From an uncultured Alphaproteobacteria bacterium (lineage in GTDB: Bacteria; Pseudomonadota; Alphaproteobacteria; RF32; CAG-239): DNA of 64,000 nucleotides. The translations under genes were made by a program, and so were the position numbers. Under the pieces are notes generated by a model that was not told the origin of the DNA, did not search any database, and saw nothing but the letters and a program-made list of their open reading frames with translations. Shown here in pieces: positions 30,667 to 40,756 of this stretch. Position 1 is the first letter of the stretch. Each line of letters begins with the position of its first letter. The stretch lies in the NCBI GenBank assembly GCA_944392835.1, contig CALXYB010000003.1:73389-137388 (forward strand). The letters are read 5' to 3'.

Positions 30667-30756
30667 ATTCAAAAACTCCACAATTATTCAACTGAGGATA
30701 TTCTTGAACATTCAACAGGATTTGACAAACCAAATAAAATTACGAATTATTACACG

Positions 30757-30784
30757 CAAAAAAAGCCCCCTTTAGGGGGCTTTC
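30757..30784 (-). terminator. Intrinsic terminator after aas.
   Basis: The minus-strand reading is GAAAGCCCCCTAAAGGGGGCTTTTTTT. Confidence 0.7.
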
Positions 30785-30788
30785 GTAT

Positions 30789-32969
30789 TTATTCCGCAGC
30801 GGGAATAATTTTAAGTTCTTCCATAACCTCTTTTTTCAGGGTTACATTATCCGCTTTTCCTGTGGCAAAAACGGGAAGTTTATCCCTATAAAGAATCACT
30901 CTTGGCAAGAAGAGCTCGGACATTCCGTTGTTTTTGATATAAGAGTGCAAAACATCTTGAGTTACCTGGTTGTTGTTGGTAACCAAAACAATCTGTTCGC
31001 CCTTGCTCTCGTGCGGCACGGCTACCACGCCGTATTGAAAATCAGCGCCCATCCACTCATAAGCTTTGCAAACCATTTCATGGACGGCATTAAGCGAGAC
31101 CATTTCGCCGCCGATTTTGGCAAAGCGTTTGATGCGGTCTTTGATATAAACAAAGCCGATTTCATCAATCTCTACCACATCGCCGGTATGATACCAACCA
31201 CCTTCAAGCGGCACGAGCTTTCCGGGGTTGTCGGGCATAATATAGCCGAGCATGATGTTTGGTCCTTTAATCACCAATTCGCCGCCTTTTTCAATACCCT
31301 CAACCGGCTCAATTTTATATTGGATTGCAGGCAAAAGCTTGCCGATAGAGCCAAAACGGTTAAAGATTCGGTTGTTTGCCGTAACCACGGGCGAGCATTC
31401 GGTTGCGCCATAAGCTTCTAAGACGCGTATTCCCAAACGCTCCATCCACATATTGCGCGTATCGGGCTTAACAGCTTCCGCACCGCCAAACATAAAGCGC
31501 ACGTTGTGGAAGTCAAACGGATGTGCGATTTTAGCATAGCCACGGAAGAAAGTATCCGTTCCAAACATAATAGAAGCGCCAATTTCATAGACGATTTCAG
31601 CCACAACACGATAGTGTAGGGGAGACGGATATAAGAAAAGTTTAGCACCTTCCAAAAGCGGGAATAAAGTTCCCACCGTCAGACCAAAGCTGTGGAACAT
31701 CGGCAAAGCATTAAACACCGTATCTGTGGTGTTAATCGTCTCAATGGCAGACATTTGCTTAATGTTTGAGATAATGTTTGCATGGCTCAAAACAACGGCT
31801 TTAGGCGCACCCTCAGAACCTGAAGTAAAGAGGATGACAGCTTTTTTGTTTCCGCCGTCTTTGTGCGGCACGCGTTTAATTTTGTAGCGCAAATAGGCAT
31901 TGATTTTATCCCATAAGCCTATTTCCTTGCGCAAAGATTCCAAATAAACAATTTTCAAACCATGCGCTTTCAAGACCTCAATCGTGCTTTCAAGCTTAGC
32001 TGTTTTAATGAAGGTTGATGAAGTAATGACCATACGCACTTCGGCAGTTTTGCACATAGAGGCCATATTTTTAGCCCCGACCGAGAAGTTGAGCATCACG
32101 GGGATTCTGTCATAAGCAGACAAGCCGAAGAAAGAACAAACCGCCGCAATAGAGTTTGGCAACAAAATAGCCACGGGTTCGCCTTGGGGCGTACGGCGTT
32201 TAAAATACTTACCCAAAACAAAAGACTTAATAATAATGTCTTTGTAAGTATTTGGCACGCGTTGAATATCCTCAACAAAATGCGGACGTTTATATAATCC
32301 TTTTTTAGCGTGAACTTTAGCCGTTTTCATCAGCTGAGCAAAAAGCGAAATATTAGGGTTATAGTTACATTCAAAGGACATCTCGCGCAAAATCATATAA
32401 ACTTCGTTGCTGATGTGGTCGCGTTGGCGGCGAAGCTCATCTTTGAGCTTAAAGCTGCGAGGCTTTCCGACCGTAATTTTCATCTTTGGCAAAGGACGAT
32501 GCGGGAGCTTTCCCTTTGTTTTGGAAAAATAGCCATATTGTGGTCCATTAATCCAAACAGGAATAATCGGTGCTTTTGATTTATCAGCAAGCAGACCGGG
32601 CGCTTCATAAATTTTCATCAAGCCGCCGTTTTCGGTAACCCGACCTTCGGCAAAGATAACGCAAAGTCTGCCGCCATTTACGATAGCAATCAACTCCTTA
32701 AGGTCGCTAGGCTCAATTGGGTTAAACAAAACGATATCGGCCGTACGCATAAAAAAGCGTATCCATCTTTTGCGGTACAAATGTCCGTTCAGCGCAAAGA
32801 CAGGATTACCCGGCAGAAAAGCAAAAAGCAAGACAGGGTCAAGAAAAGACACATGGTTGGAAACATAGACACCTTTAAGAGGCAAAGATTTTTCATCAAA
32901 GTCAATATGGCATCTGACCTTAAAACACCTGAAAAAAAGTCTCAGGCAAAAACGTACGAAGTCCCTCAA
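30789..32969 (-). CDS. aas: Bifunctional 2-acylglycerophosphoethanolamine acyltransferase / acyl-[ACP] synthetase (Aas).
   Basis: The N-terminal PlsC-type motif NHVSFLDP is present. The C-terminal AMP-binding domain has LFTSGSEGAPKAVVLSH and YGATE. From the chosen start it is collinear with E. coli Aas. The start is reassigned to a TTG, with a GGAG 9 nt upstream. This gives 37 residues before NHVSF, as in E. coli. The ORF track's 59 additional residues look like translated AT-rich intergenic DNA. Confidence 0.8.
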   Translation of the reverse strand: MRDFVRFCLRLFFRCFKVRCHIDFDEKSLPLKGVYVSNHVSFLDPVLLFAFLPGNPVFALNGHLYRKRWIRFFMRTADIVLFNPIEPSDLKELIAIVNGGRLCVIFAEGRVTENGGLMKIYEAPGLLADKSKAPIIPVWINGPQYGYFSKTKGKLPHRPLPKMKITVGKPRSFKLKDELRRQRDHISNEVYMILREMSFECNYNPNISLFAQLMKTAKVHAKKGLYKRPHFVEDIQRVPNTYKDIIIKSFVLGKYFKRRTPQGEPVAILLPNSIAAVCSFFGLSAYDRIPVMLNFSVGAKNMASMCKTAEVRMVITSSTFIKTAKLESTIEVLKAHGLKIVYLESLRKEIGLWDKINAYLRYKIKRVPHKDGGNKKAVILFTSGSEGAPKAVVLSHANIISNIKQMSAIETINTTDTVFNALPMFHSFGLTVGTLFPLLEGAKLFLYPSPLHYRVVAEIVYEIGASIMFGTDTFFRGYAKIAHPFDFHNVRFMFGGAEAVKPDTRNMWMERLGIRVLEAYGATECSPVVTANNRIFNRFGSIGKLLPAIQYKIEPVEGIEKGGELVIKGPNIMLGYIMPDNPGKLVPLEGGWYHTGDVVEIDEIGFVYIKDRIKRFAKIGGEMVSLNAVHEMVCKAYEWMGADFQYGVVAVPHESKGEQIVLVTNNNQVTQDVLHSYIKNNGMSELFLPRVILYRDKLPVFATGKADNVTLKKEVMEELKIIPAAE

Positions 32970-33184
32970 AACAAAATTCTCCGCAATTAACGAATAATAC
33001 TTATGTAAACAAAAAGCCAATATTTTGTAAAGTGATATTTTGGCGCAAATTTTGTCAAGCTTAAAAATGAGAGCTAATTTATTGAAATATATAAATAAGT
33101 TTAAGGTTTTCCAGAGGGGATAAATTAAAAGATTGATTTTTAACATACGAAGTTATACAAGAAAAACAGTAACATAATGTGAAT

Positions 33185-34591: not shown

Positions 34592-34626
34592 AATAAAGCC
34601 CTCATAAAAAAGAGGGCTTTATTTTA
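34592..34626. terminator. Bidirectional intrinsic terminator.
   Basis: The sequence is AAATAAAGCCCTCataaaaaaGAGGGCTTTATTTTA. Confidence 0.7.
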
Positions 34627-34863
34627 GGCTTCATCAACCAAAGTGATTTTAATTTTCTTTTGATAATGTGCACAAAGCCGAAAGAATTTGTAAATATCGC
34701 CGCAACTGCCGCGCTCCATTCGTTCAATCAGACCATATGGTAGCTTAGACTTTTGTGCAACTTTGCTGAGTCTTTGGCGTTTGTCGCGCCGTTCTAACCA
34801 AAGAGCCAAACCAAGCTCTTTGAAAAACTCTGTTCTAACATGAGATTTTGAAATTTCGTTCAT
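34624..34863 (-). CDS. XRE-family (Cro/C1-type) helix-turn-helix transcriptional regulator.
   Basis: The product is 79 aa. The HTH core is LSKVAQKSKLPYGLIERMERG. An AGGAG RBS is present. Confidence 0.65.
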   Translation of the reverse strand: MNEISKSHVRTEFFKELGLALWLERRDKRQRLSKVAQKSKLPYGLIERMERGSCGDIYKFFRLCAHYQKKIKITLVDEA

Positions 34864-34886
34864 CTGTTCAACTCCTATTTTGCATA

Positions 34887-35060
34887 AAACAAAACCGCTC
34901 TCAAAGGAGAGCGGAGGAGTTGGAAACTGCTAATAGTCAGTACGCTTATTCGCCCGTTAAAAACGGCTTATATCACGTCATCCTCCATTATAGGAGGTTA
35001 TATTTGGTTCTATTAGGGGAGTTTCCACACTCCGCCGATGGCATAACCATTTCCACCGAC
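34887..35060 (-). ncRNA. Candidate novel small RNA (~170 nt) with its own promoter and intrinsic terminator. Alternatively it is a structured 5' leader of the XRE gene.
   Basis: The terminator CCGCTCTCctttGAGAGCGG plus TTTTGTTTT lies at 34887..34914 on the minus strand. Internal hairpins are CCTCCtataatgGAGG and GCCGTTtttaACGGGC. Long-range complementarity exists between GGAGTGTGGAAACT and AGTTTCCAACTCC. There is no ORF of 60 aa or more. Confidence 0.4.
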
Positions 35061-35067
35061 AAGGTGA

Positions 35068-35095
35068 AGTATAATGATAATTTGCTAATTTTCAA
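35068..35095 (-). promoter_or_regulatory. Near-consensus sigma70 promoter driving the candidate sRNA/leader.
   Basis: The minus-strand reading is TTGAAA, a 16-nt spacer, then TATACT. It sits between the recG stop (35105) and the sRNA 5' end. Confidence 0.45.
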
Positions 35096-35104
35096 TAAAG
35101 ATTT

Positions 35105-37183
35105 TTATTGCTGATAAGTTTTGACGGCTTCATCTCGCTCAAATAAGTAGAGCAAAATGCGCAAAGCCGCGCCGCGCGGCGTGGCAAGCTTTTCATCTTG
35201 AGCTACAATCATCTGCGCGTCTTTGTTTGCTGTGTAGAGCAGATGTTTATGTTCATTCATATCTGCAATCCTAAATTCGCAAAAGCCCGATTGTCTGGTT
35301 CCGAGAATTTCGCCGCCGCCACGCAGTTCCAAATCTTTTTCGGCAATCAAAAAACCGTCTTCGGTTTCGCGCATAATATTAAGCCTTTCGCGCGCTGTTT
35401 CGCTGAGCGGAAAAGAGTAAAGCAACATACAGGTAGAAGCCTCAAAGCCGCGCTTAATCCGTCCGCGTAGCTGGTGGAGTTGCGCTAAGCCAAAACGTTC
35501 GGCATGTTCAATAATCATAACCGTTGCCTCAGGCACATTAACCCCGACTTCTATGACCGTTGTTGCCACCAGAATTTTAATCTCACCGGACTTAAAACGC
35601 TCCATAACAGCGTCTTTTTCTTTTTCCTTCATTTTGCCGTGAACCAAGCCCACATCTTCACCAAAGATTTTTTTTAGTGTTTCAAAACGTTCTTCAGCGG
35701 CGGCAAGGTCAATTTTTTCAGATTCTTCCACTAAGGGACAAACCCAATAAGCTCGGCAGCCTTGCGCGATTTTGCGTTGCAAAGCGGCGGCCACTTCTTG
35801 GAGCTTGGTGATTGGCAAAACTCTGGTATCAACCGGTTTGCGACCTTTAGGCGGTTGGTCTATTTTAGAATATTCCATATCTCCGTATGCGGTCAAAACC
35901 AAAGTTCTCGGAATAGGAGTTGCGGTCATAACCAAAATATCTGGTTTGTTACCTTTATCAGACAAAGCCAAACGCTGATGCACGCCGAAACGATGTTGTT
36001 CGTCAACCACGACGCAGGCAAGGTCTTTGAACGTAACCGCTTCCACAAACAAGGCATGCGTGCCGATTAAAATGTCTATTTTGCCGGCTTCGAGGTCTTG
36101 TAAAATTTTGGTGCGAGACTTGCCTTTAACACGTCCGGTTAAGAGTTCCGCCCGAATACCGATTTCTTCACACAAGGGTTGCATCGTTTCCAGATGTTGC
36201 TTGGCCAAAATTTCGGTCGGAGCCATAATCGCCGCTTGTGTGCCGCATTCCACGGCATTAAGCATAGACATCAGTGCAACGATGGTTTTTCCACTGCCGA
36301 CATCGCCTTGCAACAAGCGCAACATCCGATAAGGCGAGGCTTGGTCGGCAAAAATCTCTTTCAAAACTTTTTCCTGCGATTCGGTAAGCGTGAAGGGAAG
36401 CTTCTCCAATATTTTTTTGCGCAAAAGTCCGTTACCTTTAATAATGCGTCCTTGTTGCTTTTTGACCTTTTCTCTGACCAAAGCCAAAGCAAGCTGATTG
36501 GCAAGCATTTCGTCATAAGCCAAACGTTTGCGGGCAGGTGCGGAAGGAAGTAAGTCAGCCTCGCTTTGCGGATTATGAACAAGGCGCAAAGCCTCGTTGA
36601 ATGAGGGCAGATTTTCAGCGGACTTAAAACGCTCGTCTAACCACTCAGGCATTTGCGGCACGCGAAGCAGAGCTTGCTTGATGTATTTATTAATCATCTT
36701 GTTTGTAACGCCGGCAGTTAAGGGATAAACAGCCTCAACGGTTCTAATCTTATCCATCTCTTCCGGCTTGCCGATATAATCCGGATGGCTCATTTGCAGA
36801 CCACCGTTAAAACTCTCTAACTTTCCGCTGATAACTCGTTCGCTTCCTTCGGGCAGATTACGCTTAAGTGTCTCGGGATAAGCGTGGAAGAAACTCAAGG
36901 TAATGTCGGCGCTACCGTCCGTGCAGATAATTTTGTAAGGGAGCTTTTTGAGCTTGGGCTCAATATGCTCCAAAACTCTAACCTTGATGGTGATGATTGA
37001 ACCGATGTGCGCGTTAATCAGCTTTGGCGAATAGCGGCGGTCTATAACGGAGGAAGGCAAATGCCACAAAAGGTCAACGATTTTTCCGCCGGCCAAATTC
37101 CGCACATACTTGGCGGTCTTTTCACCGATACCGTTTAAATTCTCAATCTCTGCAAAAAGCGGATATAAAAGCGGCGGCCGCAT
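35105..37183 (-). CDS. recG: ATP-dependent DNA helicase RecG.
   Basis: The product is 692 aa. Walker A is GDVGSGKT, and DEQH is VVDEQHRFG. Helicase motif VI is QLRGRIKRG. Confidence 0.9.
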   Translation of the reverse strand: MRPPLLYPLFAEIENLNGIGEKTAKYVRNLAGGKIVDLLWHLPSSVIDRRYSPKLINAHIGSIITIKVRVLEHIEPKLKKLPYKIICTDGSADITLSFFHAYPETLKRNLPEGSERVISGKLESFNGGLQMSHPDYIGKPEEMDKIRTVEAVYPLTAGVTNKMINKYIKQALLRVPQMPEWLDERFKSAENLPSFNEALRLVHNPQSEADLLPSAPARKRLAYDEMLANQLALALVREKVKKQQGRIIKGNGLLRKKILEKLPFTLTESQEKVLKEIFADQASPYRMLRLLQGDVGSGKTIVALMSMLNAVECGTQAAIMAPTEILAKQHLETMQPLCEEIGIRAELLTGRVKGKSRTKILQDLEAGKIDILIGTHALFVEAVTFKDLACVVVDEQHRFGVHQRLALSDKGNKPDILVMTATPIPRTLVLTAYGDMEYSKIDQPPKGRKPVDTRVLPITKLQEVAAALQRKIAQGCRAYWVCPLVEESEKIDLAAAEERFETLKKIFGEDVGLVHGKMKEKEKDAVMERFKSGEIKILVATTVIEVGVNVPEATVMIIEHAERFGLAQLHQLRGRIKRGFEASTCMLLYSFPLSETARERLNIMRETEDGFLIAEKDLELRGGGEILGTRQSGFCEFRIADMNEHKHLLYTANKDAQMIVAQDEKLATPRGAALRILLYLFERDEAVKTYQQ

Positions 37184-37273: not shown

Positions 37274-40200
37274 ATGCACGCAGATATAGAAAAACTTGCG
37301 GATTATACGTTTTCTGCGGTGGCCGAGGGGTATGATGCCTTTCTGCTCCGTGATTTTTTGCACACCTCAAAACAAGATATTTTATACATTGTAAGTGATG
37401 GCTTGAGTTTGGAGCGAACAGCGGACTTGATCAAACATATCTCGCCAGAAACCGAGGTTCTAAAACTTCCGGCATGGGATACGGTGCCTTATGACCGTGT
37501 TTCGCCCAATGCCAATATTGTGGCGGAAAGACTGGCAACTTTAGGCGAGCTGACTCTAAACCCGAACAAGAAGAATAAACGGATAATCATCGCCAGTGTC
37601 GGCGCGGTCGTGCAAAAACTTCCGCCGGCCAAAATCTTCAGAAATTCCGTAAGAGAAATAAAAGTCGGCGGCAAGCTCGATTTTAATGATTTTGTACATT
37701 ATGCGGTTGTCAATGGCTATAACCGTGTTGAACAAGTTATGGAACTCGGAGAATATGCCGTTAGAGGAGATATCTTAGATATTTTTCCTGTCGGCACACC
37801 GGAACCCCTGCGTATAGATTTATTTGATGACGAGGTGGAAAAAATCCGCACCTTTGATGCCTTCAGCCAACGCACCACAGGCGAGCTCAAGAGCTATAGT
37901 TTTCAGGTTGTGGGCGAGGTTGTGTTGGATAACAACACCATCAAAAACTTCCGCACGGCTTATCGCGAAGCATTTGGAGCTGCGGCACAGTCTGATGAGC
38001 TTTATGAAGCTGTTTCGGCAGGGCGCAAATATATGGGTATGGAAAACTGGCTACCTTTTTTCTATGAAGAACCTTTGCCGACTTTGTTTGATTATCTTCC
38101 TGCGGCACATATTGTGCTGGACCGTAATGTTAATGAAGCAGTCTTGTCCAAGGAAGACGGCATAATGGACTATTATCAGGCTAGACAAGAGGCTTTGAGC
38201 ATTAAATCCGCGAGCGAGGTAGATACTTATCGGCCGGTTAACCCCGAGCTTATGTTCATTAACAAAAAAGAGTTTGAGAACAAGGTTAAAGCGCGCAAAG
38301 CCATCAGATTTACATCTATGAGCCTACCGGAATCTGAGGGCGTAATCAATGCCGCGATTATTCCGGGGCGCAATTTTTCGCATGCCAAAAATGTCAATGC
38401 CGCGCAAGTCTACGCCGAACTCAAGGATTATCTGGCAGAGAATGCCAAATTAGCAAGAATAATTTGTTGCTATTCCGAAGGCTCAAGAGAACGCTTATTT
38501 ACCTTAATGAGCGAATATGACATTAAGGATGTGAGCTTTGCCGAAAATTGGGCAGAGGCTTTGAAAAAAGCCGAACATAAACAAGTTACGATGCTGGTAA
38601 TGAACCTGCCGCATGGCTTTAGGGGAGACGGGCTTTGCCTGATTTCTGAGCAAGATATTTTAGGCGAACGTCAAAACCGCAAAACCGCCAAAAAAGTAAG
38701 CAGCAAAGATTTTATTGCCGATGTTTCGTCCTTGTCTGTCGGCGAATTGGTGGTGCATATAGAACATGGTATCGGCAAATTTTTGGGGCTGGAGAATATC
38801 ACGGCAGGCGGAGCCCCGCATGATTGTCTGAAAATCTTATATGCCAATGACGCAAAGTTATTTGTACCGGTAGAAAATATTGATGTCATCTCGCGTTATG
38901 GTATGGAAGATGACAATATTCAGTTAGATACTTTGGGCGGTCTGGCATGGCAGGCGAAAAAAGCCAAAGTTAAGGAAAAGATTCGTGATATTGCGGAGAA
39001 GCTGATTAAGATAGCCGCCGAAAGACATCTGAAAGTAGCGGATTGTTTTGTCCCGCCAGAGGGTTCGTATGACGAGTTTTGCGCCAAGTTTCCCTATACG
39101 GAAACGGATGACCAACTTAATGCCATTACGGATGTATTGAAGGATTTGAATCAAGGCTCGCCGATGGACAGATTGGTCTGCGGCGATGTCGGCTTTGGCA
39201 AAACGGAGGTTGCTTTGCGTGCCGCTTTCACCGTGGCAATGTCCGGTGCGCAGGTTGCGCTGATTGTACCGACAACATTGCTTGCCAGACAACATTATTA
39301 TAATTTTAAGAAACGTATGGAAGGTTTTCCTGTTCGGGTAAAAATGCTTTCGCGTCTGGTAAGTGCCAAAGAAGCGGCAGAAACTAAAAAAGGTTTGGAA
39401 GACGGTTCGGTAGAAATCGTCATTGGCACGCACGCGCTGTTATCAAAGGATATCAAGTTTTGCAATTTAGGACTTTTGATTATTGATGAGGAGCAACATT
39501 TCGGCGTTGCGCACAAAGAAAAACTCAAAGCCCTAAAGTCAAATGTCCACGTCTTGACCTTAACCGCCACACCGATACCGCGCACATTACAAATGTCTTT
39601 GACGGGCGTAAAGCAATTAAGCATTATTGCCACCCCGCCGGTGGACCGCTTAGCCGCGCGTACTTTTGTTATGCCCTTTGATAAGGTTATGATAAAAGAA
39701 GCCATTTACCGCGAGAAGTTTCGTAACGGCCAAACCTTTTTTGTCTGCCCGAGAGTGTCGGATATTTTCGGTATGGAAAAAGAGCTCAGAGAGCTCGTGC
39801 CGGATATAAAAATTTTGGTGGCTCACGGACAAATGCCGGTCAGCAAGTTGGAAGATGTTATGAACGAATTTGCCGACGGCAAGGCGGATATGTTGCTGTC
39901 AACCACGATTATTGAATCGGGTATTGATATGCCGTCGGTTAATACGATGATTATTCACCGCTCGGATATGTTTGGCTTGGCACAGTTATACCAGCTTAAG
40001 GGACGAGTAGGGCGGTCAAAGGTCAGAGGCTATTGCTATTTTACCGTGCCCAAACAAAAGAACCTAAAACCCATTGCCGAGCGCCGTTTAAATATTTTGC
40101 AGGCGCTGGATACTTTGGGCGCAGGCTTTTCTTTAGCTAGTCATGATATGGATATCAGAGGCTCAGGTAATATCTTGGGCGAGGAACAGTCAGGGCATAT

Positions 40201-40756
40201 TAAAGATGTCGGTATTGCCTTGTATCAGCATATGTTGGAAGAAGAGATAATGCGCCAAAAGAGCGGTGCAGAACAGGAAAAAGAGCAAGCAGAGATAGCC
40301 GATTGGGCACCGCAAATCACCACCGGTATTCCGATTATGATTCCCGAAGCTTATGTGCGCGATTTGGGTGTGCGTTTGGGGCTGTATAAACGCATTGGCG
40401 AGATTAAGGATAAGGCCGGAATTTTGGATATGCGCGAGGAATTAACCGATCGTTTCGGCAAGCTCCCCGAAGAGGTAGATAACTTGCTTAAAACAGTAGA
40501 GATAAAACAGCTTTGCCGCGAGGCCAATATTGAAAAAATAGATGCCGGAGCCAAGGGAATTCTGATAGCTTTTCATAACAATGTTTTCAAAGCGCCGGAG
40601 AAACTGATAAATTGGGTTGCCAAGCAGTTTGGCGTGGTAAAAATCAGACCGGACCAAAAACTTTTCATAGAGCGCGATTTGCAAAACTATGCCACCCGAG
40701 TTGAAACCATAAAGACCTATGTCGGAAAACTGGTAGATATGGTCAAAGGAGCATAA
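37274..40756 (+). CDS. mfd: Transcription-repair coupling factor Mfd.
   Basis: The product is 1160 aa, with a UvrB-homology N-terminus. Helicase motifs are GDVGFGKTEVA and IIDEEQHFG. A TRG-like region is present. Confidence 0.9.
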   Translation: MHADIEKLADYTFSAVAEGYDAFLLRDFLHTSKQDILYIVSDGLSLERTADLIKHISPETEVLKLPAWDTVPYDRVSPNANIVAERLATLGELTLNPNKKNKRIIIASVGAVVQKLPPAKIFRNSVREIKVGGKLDFNDFVHYAVVNGYNRVEQVMELGEYAVRGDILDIFPVGTPEPLRIDLFDDEVEKIRTFDAFSQRTTGELKSYSFQVVGEVVLDNNTIKNFRTAYREAFGAAAQSDELYEAVSAGRKYMGMENWLPFFYEEPLPTLFDYLPAAHIVLDRNVNEAVLSKEDGIMDYYQARQEALSIKSASEVDTYRPVNPELMFINKKEFENKVKARKAIRFTSMSLPESEGVINAAIIPGRNFSHAKNVNAAQVYAELKDYLAENAKLARIICCYSEGSRERLFTLMSEYDIKDVSFAENWAEALKKAEHKQVTMLVMNLPHGFRGDGLCLISEQDILGERQNRKTAKKVSSKDFIADVSSLSVGELVVHIEHGIGKFLGLENITAGGAPHDCLKILYANDAKLFVPVENIDVISRYGMEDDNIQLDTLGGLAWQAKKAKVKEKIRDIAEKLIKIAAERHLKVADCFVPPEGSYDEFCAKFPYTETDDQLNAITDVLKDLNQGSPMDRLVCGDVGFGKTEVALRAAFTVAMSGAQVALIVPTTLLARQHYYNFKKRMEGFPVRVKMLSRLVSAKEAAETKKGLEDGSVEIVIGTHALLSKDIKFCNLGLLIIDEEQHFGVAHKEKLKALKSNVHVLTLTATPIPRTLQMSLTGVKQLSIIATPPVDRLAARTFVMPFDKVMIKEAIYREKFRNGQTFFVCPRVSDIFGMEKELRELVPDIKILVAHGQMPVSKLEDVMNEFADGKADMLLSTTIIESGIDMPSVNTMIIHRSDMFGLAQLYQLKGRVGRSKVRGYCYFTVPKQKNLKPIAERRLNILQALDTLGAGFSLASHDMDIRGSGNILGEEQSGHIKDVGIALYQHMLEEEIMRQKSGAEQEKEQAEIADWAPQITTGIPIMIPEAYVRDLGVRLGLYKRIGEIKDKAGILDMREELTDRFGKLPEEVDNLLKTVEIKQLCREANIEKIDAGAKGILIAFHNNVFKAPEKLINWVAKQFGVVKIRPDQKLFIERDLQNYATRVETIKTYVGKLVDMVKGA

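Follow-up and report, generated by a model that had tools for sequence, protein, structure and literature searches.

A multicopy structured RNA family preceding small, putatively XRE-type regulator genes in uncultured human-gut Alphaproteobacteria

The stretch of DNA analysed here (the window, 64 kb at its full length) carries on its minus strand, between recG and a small regulator-like gene, a real structured RNA at 35062-34886 that belongs to a new, well-supported structured RNA family, absent from Rfam and of a kind previously known from Bartonella alone. We consider it probable that this RNA is a promoter-driven structured leader whose terminator attenuates the small XRE-family regulator encoded just downstream, making it a functional counterpart of the Brt/Trp pairs. 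It would then be a covariation-backed, sequence-unrelated example, in uncultured human-gut Alphaproteobacteria, of an arrangement that has been published as specific to the genus Bartonella (PMC5387305). The family comes from a poorly studied gut lineage and comprises dozens of natural variants, one of them with a different expression platform, which can be used to learn which parts of the RNA matter. Its multicopy status, the lack of conservation of a loop bearing TATAAT and the Brt/Trp analogy are points beyond the preliminary description of this DNA. The features of the locus are as follows.

35105-37183, minus strand: recG, with its stop codon at 35107-35105; one source names the product 'ATP-dependent DNA helicase RecG'
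35068-35095, minus strand: sigma-70-type promoter, with the -35 element TTGAAA at 35095-35090, a 16-nt spacer and the -10 element TATACT at 35073-35068
34886-35062, minus strand: structured RNA, predicted length ~177 nt, the start being inferred from the -10 box and the 3' end set at the end of the U-run
35034-35060, minus strand: P1 hairpin, in which 35060-35053 pairs with 35041-35034, with the conserved loop AAAUGGUUAUG
35020-35033, minus strand: 5' strand of P2a, GGAGU-G-UGGAAACU, with G 35028 bulged; partner 34928-34916
35010-35016, minus strand: 5' strand of P2b, CUAAUAG; partner 34936-34930
34982-34997, minus strand: P3 hairpin, CCUCC-UAUAAU-GGAGG, with arms like an anti-Shine-Dalgarno (anti-SD) and a Shine-Dalgarno (SD) sequence
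34942-34978, minus strand: P4 hairpin, with the outer stem ACGU/GCGU, the inner stem CCGU/ACGG and the internal loop GAUAUAAG / GCGAAUAA
34916-34936, minus strand: 3' strands of P2, with P2b at 34936-34930 and P2a at 34928-34916 (AGUUUCCAACUCC)
34886-34914, minus strand: intrinsic terminator, with the stem-loop CCGCUCUC-CUUU-GAGAGCGG at 34914-34895 followed by the U-run UUUUGUUUU at 34894-34886
34872-34876, minus strand: SD sequence AGGAG of the downstream open reading frame (ORF), 18 nt past the terminator stem
34624-34863, minus strand: 79-aa ORF, putatively a divergent XRE-family helix-turn-helix (HTH) protein, type A, with its ATG at 34863

The minus-strand TTGAAA-16-TATACT promoter that had been placed beside recG is found at 35095-35068, its -35 element nine bases past the recG stop codon; 10 of its 12 positions agree with the consensus, and it ranks first among the promoter-like sites of the kilobase scanned. 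The strong intrinsic terminator reported close to the ribosome-binding site is likewise present (34914-34886). Written as DNA it reads CCGCTCTC-cttt-GAGAGCGG and then TTTTGTTTT, the stem being 8 bp, and 22 nt separate the end of the U-run from the ATG in the window copy. A weak promoter-like sequence inside the terminator, TTGAGA-16-CAAAAT, was rejected as a promoter because its -10 element is not conserved and because transcription from it would start within the SD sequence. The window has a G+C content of 42%. Beyond recG, the ORF at 37274-40756 (plus strand), which from its sequence we take to be mfd (transcription-repair coupling factor, 1160 aa), is divergent from recG, with a gap of ~90 nt between the two.

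The predicted 177-nt transcript has a minimum free energy (MFE) of -65.6 kcal/mol compared with -42.4 ± 3.8 kcal/mol in 200 dinucleotide shuffles (z = -6.1), none of which equalled the window RNA. The stable hairpins and the long-range complementarity of the 5' and 3' portions that had been noticed earlier are all present in the MFE fold, and the long-range pairing, GGAGU.GUGGAAACU / AGUUUCCAACUCC, is also backed by covariation. Related sequences, in which the preliminary description had proposed to look for covariation, bear the fold out. In the RNAalifold consensus of 65 distinct full-length copies aligned with MAFFT, 22 of 37 pairs show compensatory changes. Counts were also made over seven helices (P1; P2a and P2b, which close a junction; P3; P4a and P4b; and the terminator), with partners slid by 1-3 columns and 500 shuffles as controls. 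Standard pairs occupy 92.7% of the cells of these helices compared with 39-48% for slid partners, 27 pairs are changed on both sides compared with 7-12, and 358 cells carry both-side changes compared with 10-62; the observed values were reached in 0 of 500 shuffles. The unpaired cells come mostly from copies whose 5' and 3' halves belong to different paralogs. Three loci (L019, L074 and L105; alignments A2/A3) have the 5' strand and the 3' strand of P2 from different paralogs, so that the helix is broken, and such copies may be either true recombinants, exchanged across the invariant P3-P4 core, or chimeras of metagenome assembly.

Covariation is distributed unevenly along the RNA. The P1 stem has both-side changes at six of its eight pairs around a loop in which GGUUA is nearly invariant, P2a is paired in 96.7% of cells with five compensatory pairs, its three central positions being hypervariable and covarying between invariant ends, and P2b has both-side changes at all seven pairs. 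The P4 helices are paired in 99.6-100% of cells with three and two compensatory pairs, and P4a covaries at three of four pairs. At least five different stem sequences occur at the terminator in the family, every one of them paired and followed by UUUUGUUUU. The CCUCC/GGAGG stem of P3, on the other hand, is nearly invariant, and covariation therefore neither supports nor contradicts it. The hairpin that had been described as presenting TATAAT in its loop does exist in the window, but the loop varies among homologs (UUUGU, UUUCAA, ACUUGU and others) and the TATAAT is thus incidental. The near-symmetric internal loop of P4 is conserved, with the motifs GAWAUAAG / CGAAUAAG across the family; these motifs were in the search pattern, which accounts in part for their invariance. 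Matches found by the model only (L091:10052, L099:9221, L023:9908 and L143:692) retain them for the most part, and in L150, the most distant match, they are more degraded. The RNA may also contain a pseudoknot between GGUUA of the P1 loop and UAACC ahead of P3: every substitution seen keeps the pairing through wobble, there are zero double changes, and the candidate interaction competes with two pairs of P3.

Relatives of the 79-aa protein are few, forming 8 clusters of which one is labelled 'MAG ... Azospirillum sp.', and a protein-based search of genome contigs yielded one locus only. At every locus derived from the protein, ~200 nt upstream are conserved, including the promoter and the terminator, and the flanking genes differ. 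A pattern built from the conserved RNA core was used to search metagenome contigs and gave at least 120 matches, from human gut wherever a sample source is listed, with at least 88 distinct RNA sequences among the matches listed. Covariance-model matches number at least 110, including tandem copies and multiple copies per contig; the model built on the gut RNA (R1) scores the window RNA at 188.9 bits (E = 1.7e-44) and covers it over the full model. Up to 3-4 copies lie on single contigs, for example on ERZ1643251.251 (L023, with two copies, L028 and L052), and in L099 tandem copies are ~550 nt apart. No second copy was found in the 64-kb window by blastn or the covariance model. The hosts are human-gut metagenome bins with the source labels 'Azospirillum sp.' or 'Alphaproteobacteria bacterium'.

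Family members share the order of elements seen in the window. Among the matches listed, the promoter (TTGCAA/TTGAAA-16/17-TATAAT) is found at the same position in 90 of 95 distinct copies and the terminator with its U-run in 79 of 95, an SD sequence and start codon lie 22-29 nt past the U-run in 73 copies, and an HTH ORF follows the RNA in every full-length copy. The stretch separating terminator and ORF holds no conserved promoter. The closest relative, L001, has in common with the window only a 479-bp module of promoter, RNA and ORF (window 34631-35108, L001:2759-3234; 87.7% identity), which lies between rpsA and dnaK in L001 and between recG and a porin gene in the window. Where the same porin gene (92% amino acid identity) occurs in L090/L135, homology ends at the porin stop codon over the ~150 nt of each locus compared. 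It thus seems that a given site either carries or lacks the ~480-bp module. One RNA copy is preceded by a region, L047:1652-4893, that encodes a pair of paralogous P-loop (GxxGSGKS/T) proteins of ~305 aa and a pair of paralogous proteins of ~220-240 aa.

The ORFs that follow the RNA encode proteins of 75-110 aa (one type, 160 aa) and fall into at least six highly divergent sequence types, with 17-31% identity between the window protein and the other types. Common to the types is a central HTH-like core, and most also share a C-terminal strand of the form K-I-K-I-x-L-x-D. The XRE label given earlier to the downstream gene holds through profiles rather than through the window protein by itself, which in Pfam reaches only HTH_25 at E = 0.04, whose own family profile gave no HTH match in the PDB, and whose AlphaFold2 model (pLDDT 54) is unusable. 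Type B lies above the Pfam cut-off for HTH_3 and the remaining types have weak matches to the XRE clan. The window type matches a profile of the other small types (hhalign, 96.7%, E = 3e-10), and the profile of the non-window types in turn matches the XRE-family structures C.BclI, HipB and HigA at E ~ 1e-6, which together make the XRE link significant; an all-type profile has matches to HigA, Stl and C.BclI with E-values as low as 1e-7. Assignment of the 79-aa protein as an XRE-family HTH protein is therefore supported indirectly.

One variant of the family, termed G and present at no fewer than 17 loci, retains P1-P4 intact and lacks the 3' strand of P2 and the terminator. Its invariant leader sequence CUCCU(UAC) is complementary to GUAAGGAG, the SD sequence of the ORF directly after it. 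In L026:210-860 and ~16 similar loci these terminator-less copies continue straight into a 110-aa ORF or an internal 78-aa HTH ORF, and further 3' a second same-type HTH gene is found together with a separate hairpin and a terminator. A conserved RNA domain that is joined in some copies to a terminator and in others to an SD-sequestering helix is to be expected of a cis-regulatory leader, and that one core feeds two kinds of platform argues for cis-regulation.

The preliminary description had left two readings open, an independent small RNA (sRNA) or a leader containing a terminator or attenuator, and the anatomy of the family favours the latter given the frequencies of the promoter (90 of 95) and terminator (79 of 95) and the position of the start codon. 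With only 22-29 nt past the U-run and no conserved promoter there, the ORF can be reached solely by read-through. We propose that transcription starts at ~35062 and that the default fold consists of P1, the terminator and, between them, a long P2 that closes a junction containing P3 and P4. The majority of transcripts would stop at the U-run, releasing an abundant short RNA, and read-through transcripts alone would carry the regulator ORF. The leader would in this way be an attenuator, holding the regulator at a low level until an input of some kind lowers termination. Promoter, RNA and small HTH gene would together form a multicopy module dispersed in the genomes of uncultured human-gut Alphaproteobacteria. 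When the nascent window RNA is folded as far as the 3' arm of the terminator, the 5' arm stays unpaired, and termination is thus the thermodynamic default. No conserved antiterminator was found that survives the changes in terminator sequence: pairings such as GGCGGAG/CUCCGCU, or GGAGG with a second CCUCC, are possible in the window and were rejected because they are lost where the terminator differs, and the folds of nascent transcripts are inconsistent across copies. Read-through could be triggered by a protein, by a ligand or by simple leakiness. Recent duplication or gene conversion, and not function, could account for part of the very high conservation of RNA and promoter relative to the proteins. 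Since the terminated short RNA would accumulate in any case, the sRNA and leader options are not exclusive; the released RNA is an expected by-product that may have a function of its own.

The attenuating leader has to be weighed against several other explanations, two of which accept the RNA and differ as to its main role. P1-P4 might form the aptamer of a riboswitch-like sensor, with the terminator or the SD helix of variant G as its platform, that places paralogous regulators under one signal. This we regard as unlikely, in spite of the multi-helix junction with near-invariant junction and internal-loop nucleotides beside strongly covarying stems, the use of the same core with two different expression platforms, and the response to haem concentration that has been reported for the Brt1 leader from a reporter assay (PMC8070961). 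A conserved alternative antiterminator was not found, the regulated genes are diversified transcription factors rather than metabolic or transport genes, and the gene context, with copies among unrelated housekeeping genes, suggests no ligand. Moreover, the invariance is partly imposed by the search pattern, and the stems, promoter and 5' untranslated region are highly conserved as well, which duplication or gene conversion fits equally. It also seems improbable that the ~177-nt RNA is mainly a trans-acting sRNA that pairs with other mRNAs through its CU-rich, anti-SD-like segments (CCUCC, CUCCU and ACUCCUCC), with the downstream HTH gene merely loosely coupled to it. The near-consensus promoter of its own, the Rho-independent terminator with a U-tail, the conserved CU-rich motifs, the complementarity of AACUCCU to the conserved AGGAGUU SD region of most family ORFs and the proposal of such a role for Brt1 (PMC5387305) all point in that direction. 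However, the CU-rich motifs lie mostly inside stable helices of the predicted fold, and the constant linkage to the HTH ORF across a gap too short for a separate promoter makes pure independence of the RNA unlikely. A trans-acting role is compatible with the attenuating leader as a dual function and is not a true alternative to it.

Two further explanations would deny the element a role in host regulation or its existence as an RNA. The conservation might stem from the spread of a mobile or selfish module, resembling a toxin-antitoxin or defence system, as the ~480-bp segment shared by the window and L001 at different sites, the porin-gene relative in which homology ends at the porin stop over the ~150 nt compared, the multiple copies and the chimeric copies would suggest. 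We consider this very unlikely, because the module is without a transposase, integrase, terminal repeat or toxin-like gene, the core pattern had no match in viral contigs and blastn of the RNA none in plasmids including pBGR3, PADLOC matched only generic HTH proteins, and divergent copies precede a conserved, housekeeping-type XRE regulator, which points to an old regulatory arrangement. The other possibility is that there is no RNA gene at all, only hairpins formed by chance or, on one strand or the other, a short coding region. The earlier statement that the region has no sizeable ORF needs amending, since an 88-aa antisense ORF spans 34848-35114 (plus strand) and a 35-aa sense ORF, which begins within the -35 box, overlaps the region too. 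It stands as regards coding: stops or frameshifts break the antisense frame in 58 of 65 homologs, homologous RNAs vary between 171 and 191 nt with indels whose lengths are not divisible by three, and protein coding was thus rejected for either strand. With covariation far beyond the controls in addition, an explanation that dispenses with the RNA is hardly credible.

The RNA is not a catalogued one, which is the outcome of the Rfam check that had been recommended. At the gathering threshold Rfam 15 gives two tRNAs only in the window, in a search of the region at E ≤ 10 every family stayed below its gathering score, and six related loci gave no match. The top match, sRNA-Xcc1 (RF02221), covers the 3' arm of P3, P4 and the 3' strand of P2; its 24.7 bits (E = 0.056 for a search of 551 nt) fall short of the gathering score, 53, and the match was rejected as a partial resemblance at chance level and not membership. 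The alpha-r14 and NfeR1-type sRNAs are, like the gut RNA, multicopy in Alphaproteobacteria with CU-rich, CCUCC-type anti-SD motifs, which they display in hairpin loops. None of them is known to be tied to a downstream HTH gene, and the corresponding Rfam families gave no match even at E ≤ 10. Terminator-based riboswitches and attenuators likewise have a structured 5' leader and a terminator directly before the ORF, with an alternative, SD-sequestering platform in some copies. Unlike typical leaders of these kinds, the gut RNA is without a conserved antiterminator, controls (if our proposal is correct) paralogous transcription factors, and is multicopy with promoter and stems conserved as well. 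A survey of structured RNAs in the human microbiome reported HTH-XRE genes as the second commonest neighbours of its candidates (Fremin & Bhatt 2021); the core motif of the gut RNA gave no match in the 200 of its 408 supplementary files that were covered, and the RNA may thus still be one of those candidates.

The closest parallel is in Bartonella. Nine Brt RNAs of 194-203 nt are reported from Bartonella henselae as highly expressed and highly structured, each of them closely followed by an XRE-type trp gene that is transcribed poorly (Tu et al. 2016, PMC5387305). The Brt family was published as specific to the genus, its members having been found by BLAST with 74-100% identity (PMC5387305), and according to a review, deletion of the 3' stem-loop of Brt1 de-represses trp1 (PMC8070961). 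Brt is absent from Rfam 15, and the searchable literature contains no mention of it outside Bartonella. Both RNAs are ~175-205 nt long and highly structured, with their own promoter and a 3' stem-loop, and both lie a few tens of nucleotides before a same-strand XRE-family HTH gene that has no promoter of its own. Both are also found in multiple copies per genome in Alphaproteobacteria, the proteins being less conserved than the RNA, and each has a 5' hairpin followed by a long-range helix with ends of the GGAG/CUCC type, as judged by eye for Brt, for which RNAalifold prefers another long-range pairing. They differ in their 3' ends (a canonical terminator with a U-run in the gut RNA, the hairpin GCGAGGGCGCUCGC with no U-run in Brt), in their partners, which are mostly 75-110 aa and barely recognisable as XRE in the gut lineage compared with 108-152 aa for Trp, and in their hosts, an uncultured gut lineage and Bartonella. 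Expression and function have been tested for Brt1/Trp1 alone.

Covariance models were applied in both directions, with plasmid pBGR3 and Bartonella trp loci as the source of Brt sequences. The gut-RNA model R1 gave no more than 8 bits on these sequences, and not at Brt. A broadened model, R2, had its best match exactly on Brt1 with the same order of helices, at 10.5 bits (E = 0.32). Conversely, the Brt model R3 recovered held-out Brt copies at 181-212 bits and gave nothing at the gut RNA. Since the models fail both ways, the gut RNA is not a demonstrable member of Brt, although it would work like the Brt/Trp pairs. Elsewhere in the window, R3 has a weak match at 30720-30811 (plus strand; 11.6 bits; E = 0.0037, roughly calibrated, for 10 kb searched) that is probably spurious. 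It lies at the 3' end of a 785-aa ORF (30789-33146, minus strand) in which we recognise by eye an acyltransferase-like N-terminal part and an AMP-binding, acyl-ACP synthetase-like part, and which is presumably Aas-like.

A further connection to Trp comes from divergent copies of the gut RNA that precede not a small HTH gene but the XRE regulator canonical for Alphaproteobacteria, a protein of 154-171 aa whose HTH domain shares 50% identity with B. henselae Trp1. These copies include L023 (67 bits), L143-145 (68 bits, E ~ 1e-15) and, from a more distant species, L150 (29.7 bits, E = 2.4e-6), which is ~30 nt ahead of the XRE gene. No related RNA was found upstream of the Magnetospirillum orthologue or at one other alphaproteobacterial XRE locus. 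The occurrence of divergent copies before a Trp homologue suggests that the combination of such an RNA with an XRE gene arose earlier, and is more widely distributed, than had been supposed, and common ancestry of the gut RNA and Brt is possible. A more far-reaching proposal, to which we give little credence, is that both derive from one ancient alphaproteobacterial RNA-XRE module in which P1-P4 is a sensor that, by way of terminator or SD-sequestering platforms, switches on the whole diversifying XRE family at once. If this were true, P1-P4 would sense a small molecule or a dedicated protein and constitute an RNA switch with a single input and many regulators.

Two observations were made on these loci in passing. 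At Brt loci (L137:1291-1500 and others; alignment A5) the segment UCCCGGAA occurs twice, giving UUCCGGGAG two mutually exclusive partners, of which no description was noticed in the accessible text of the Brt literature; the duplicated segment is a candidate switch in the Bartonella RNAs. Between the RNA copy and the canonical XRE gene, L023:10085-10410 and L143:874-1200 contain a second structured stretch, with the hairpin GGUGACGGACGAAUAAUCCGUCACC, in which the CGAAUAA motif appears again, and a second terminator-like hairpin just before the gene.
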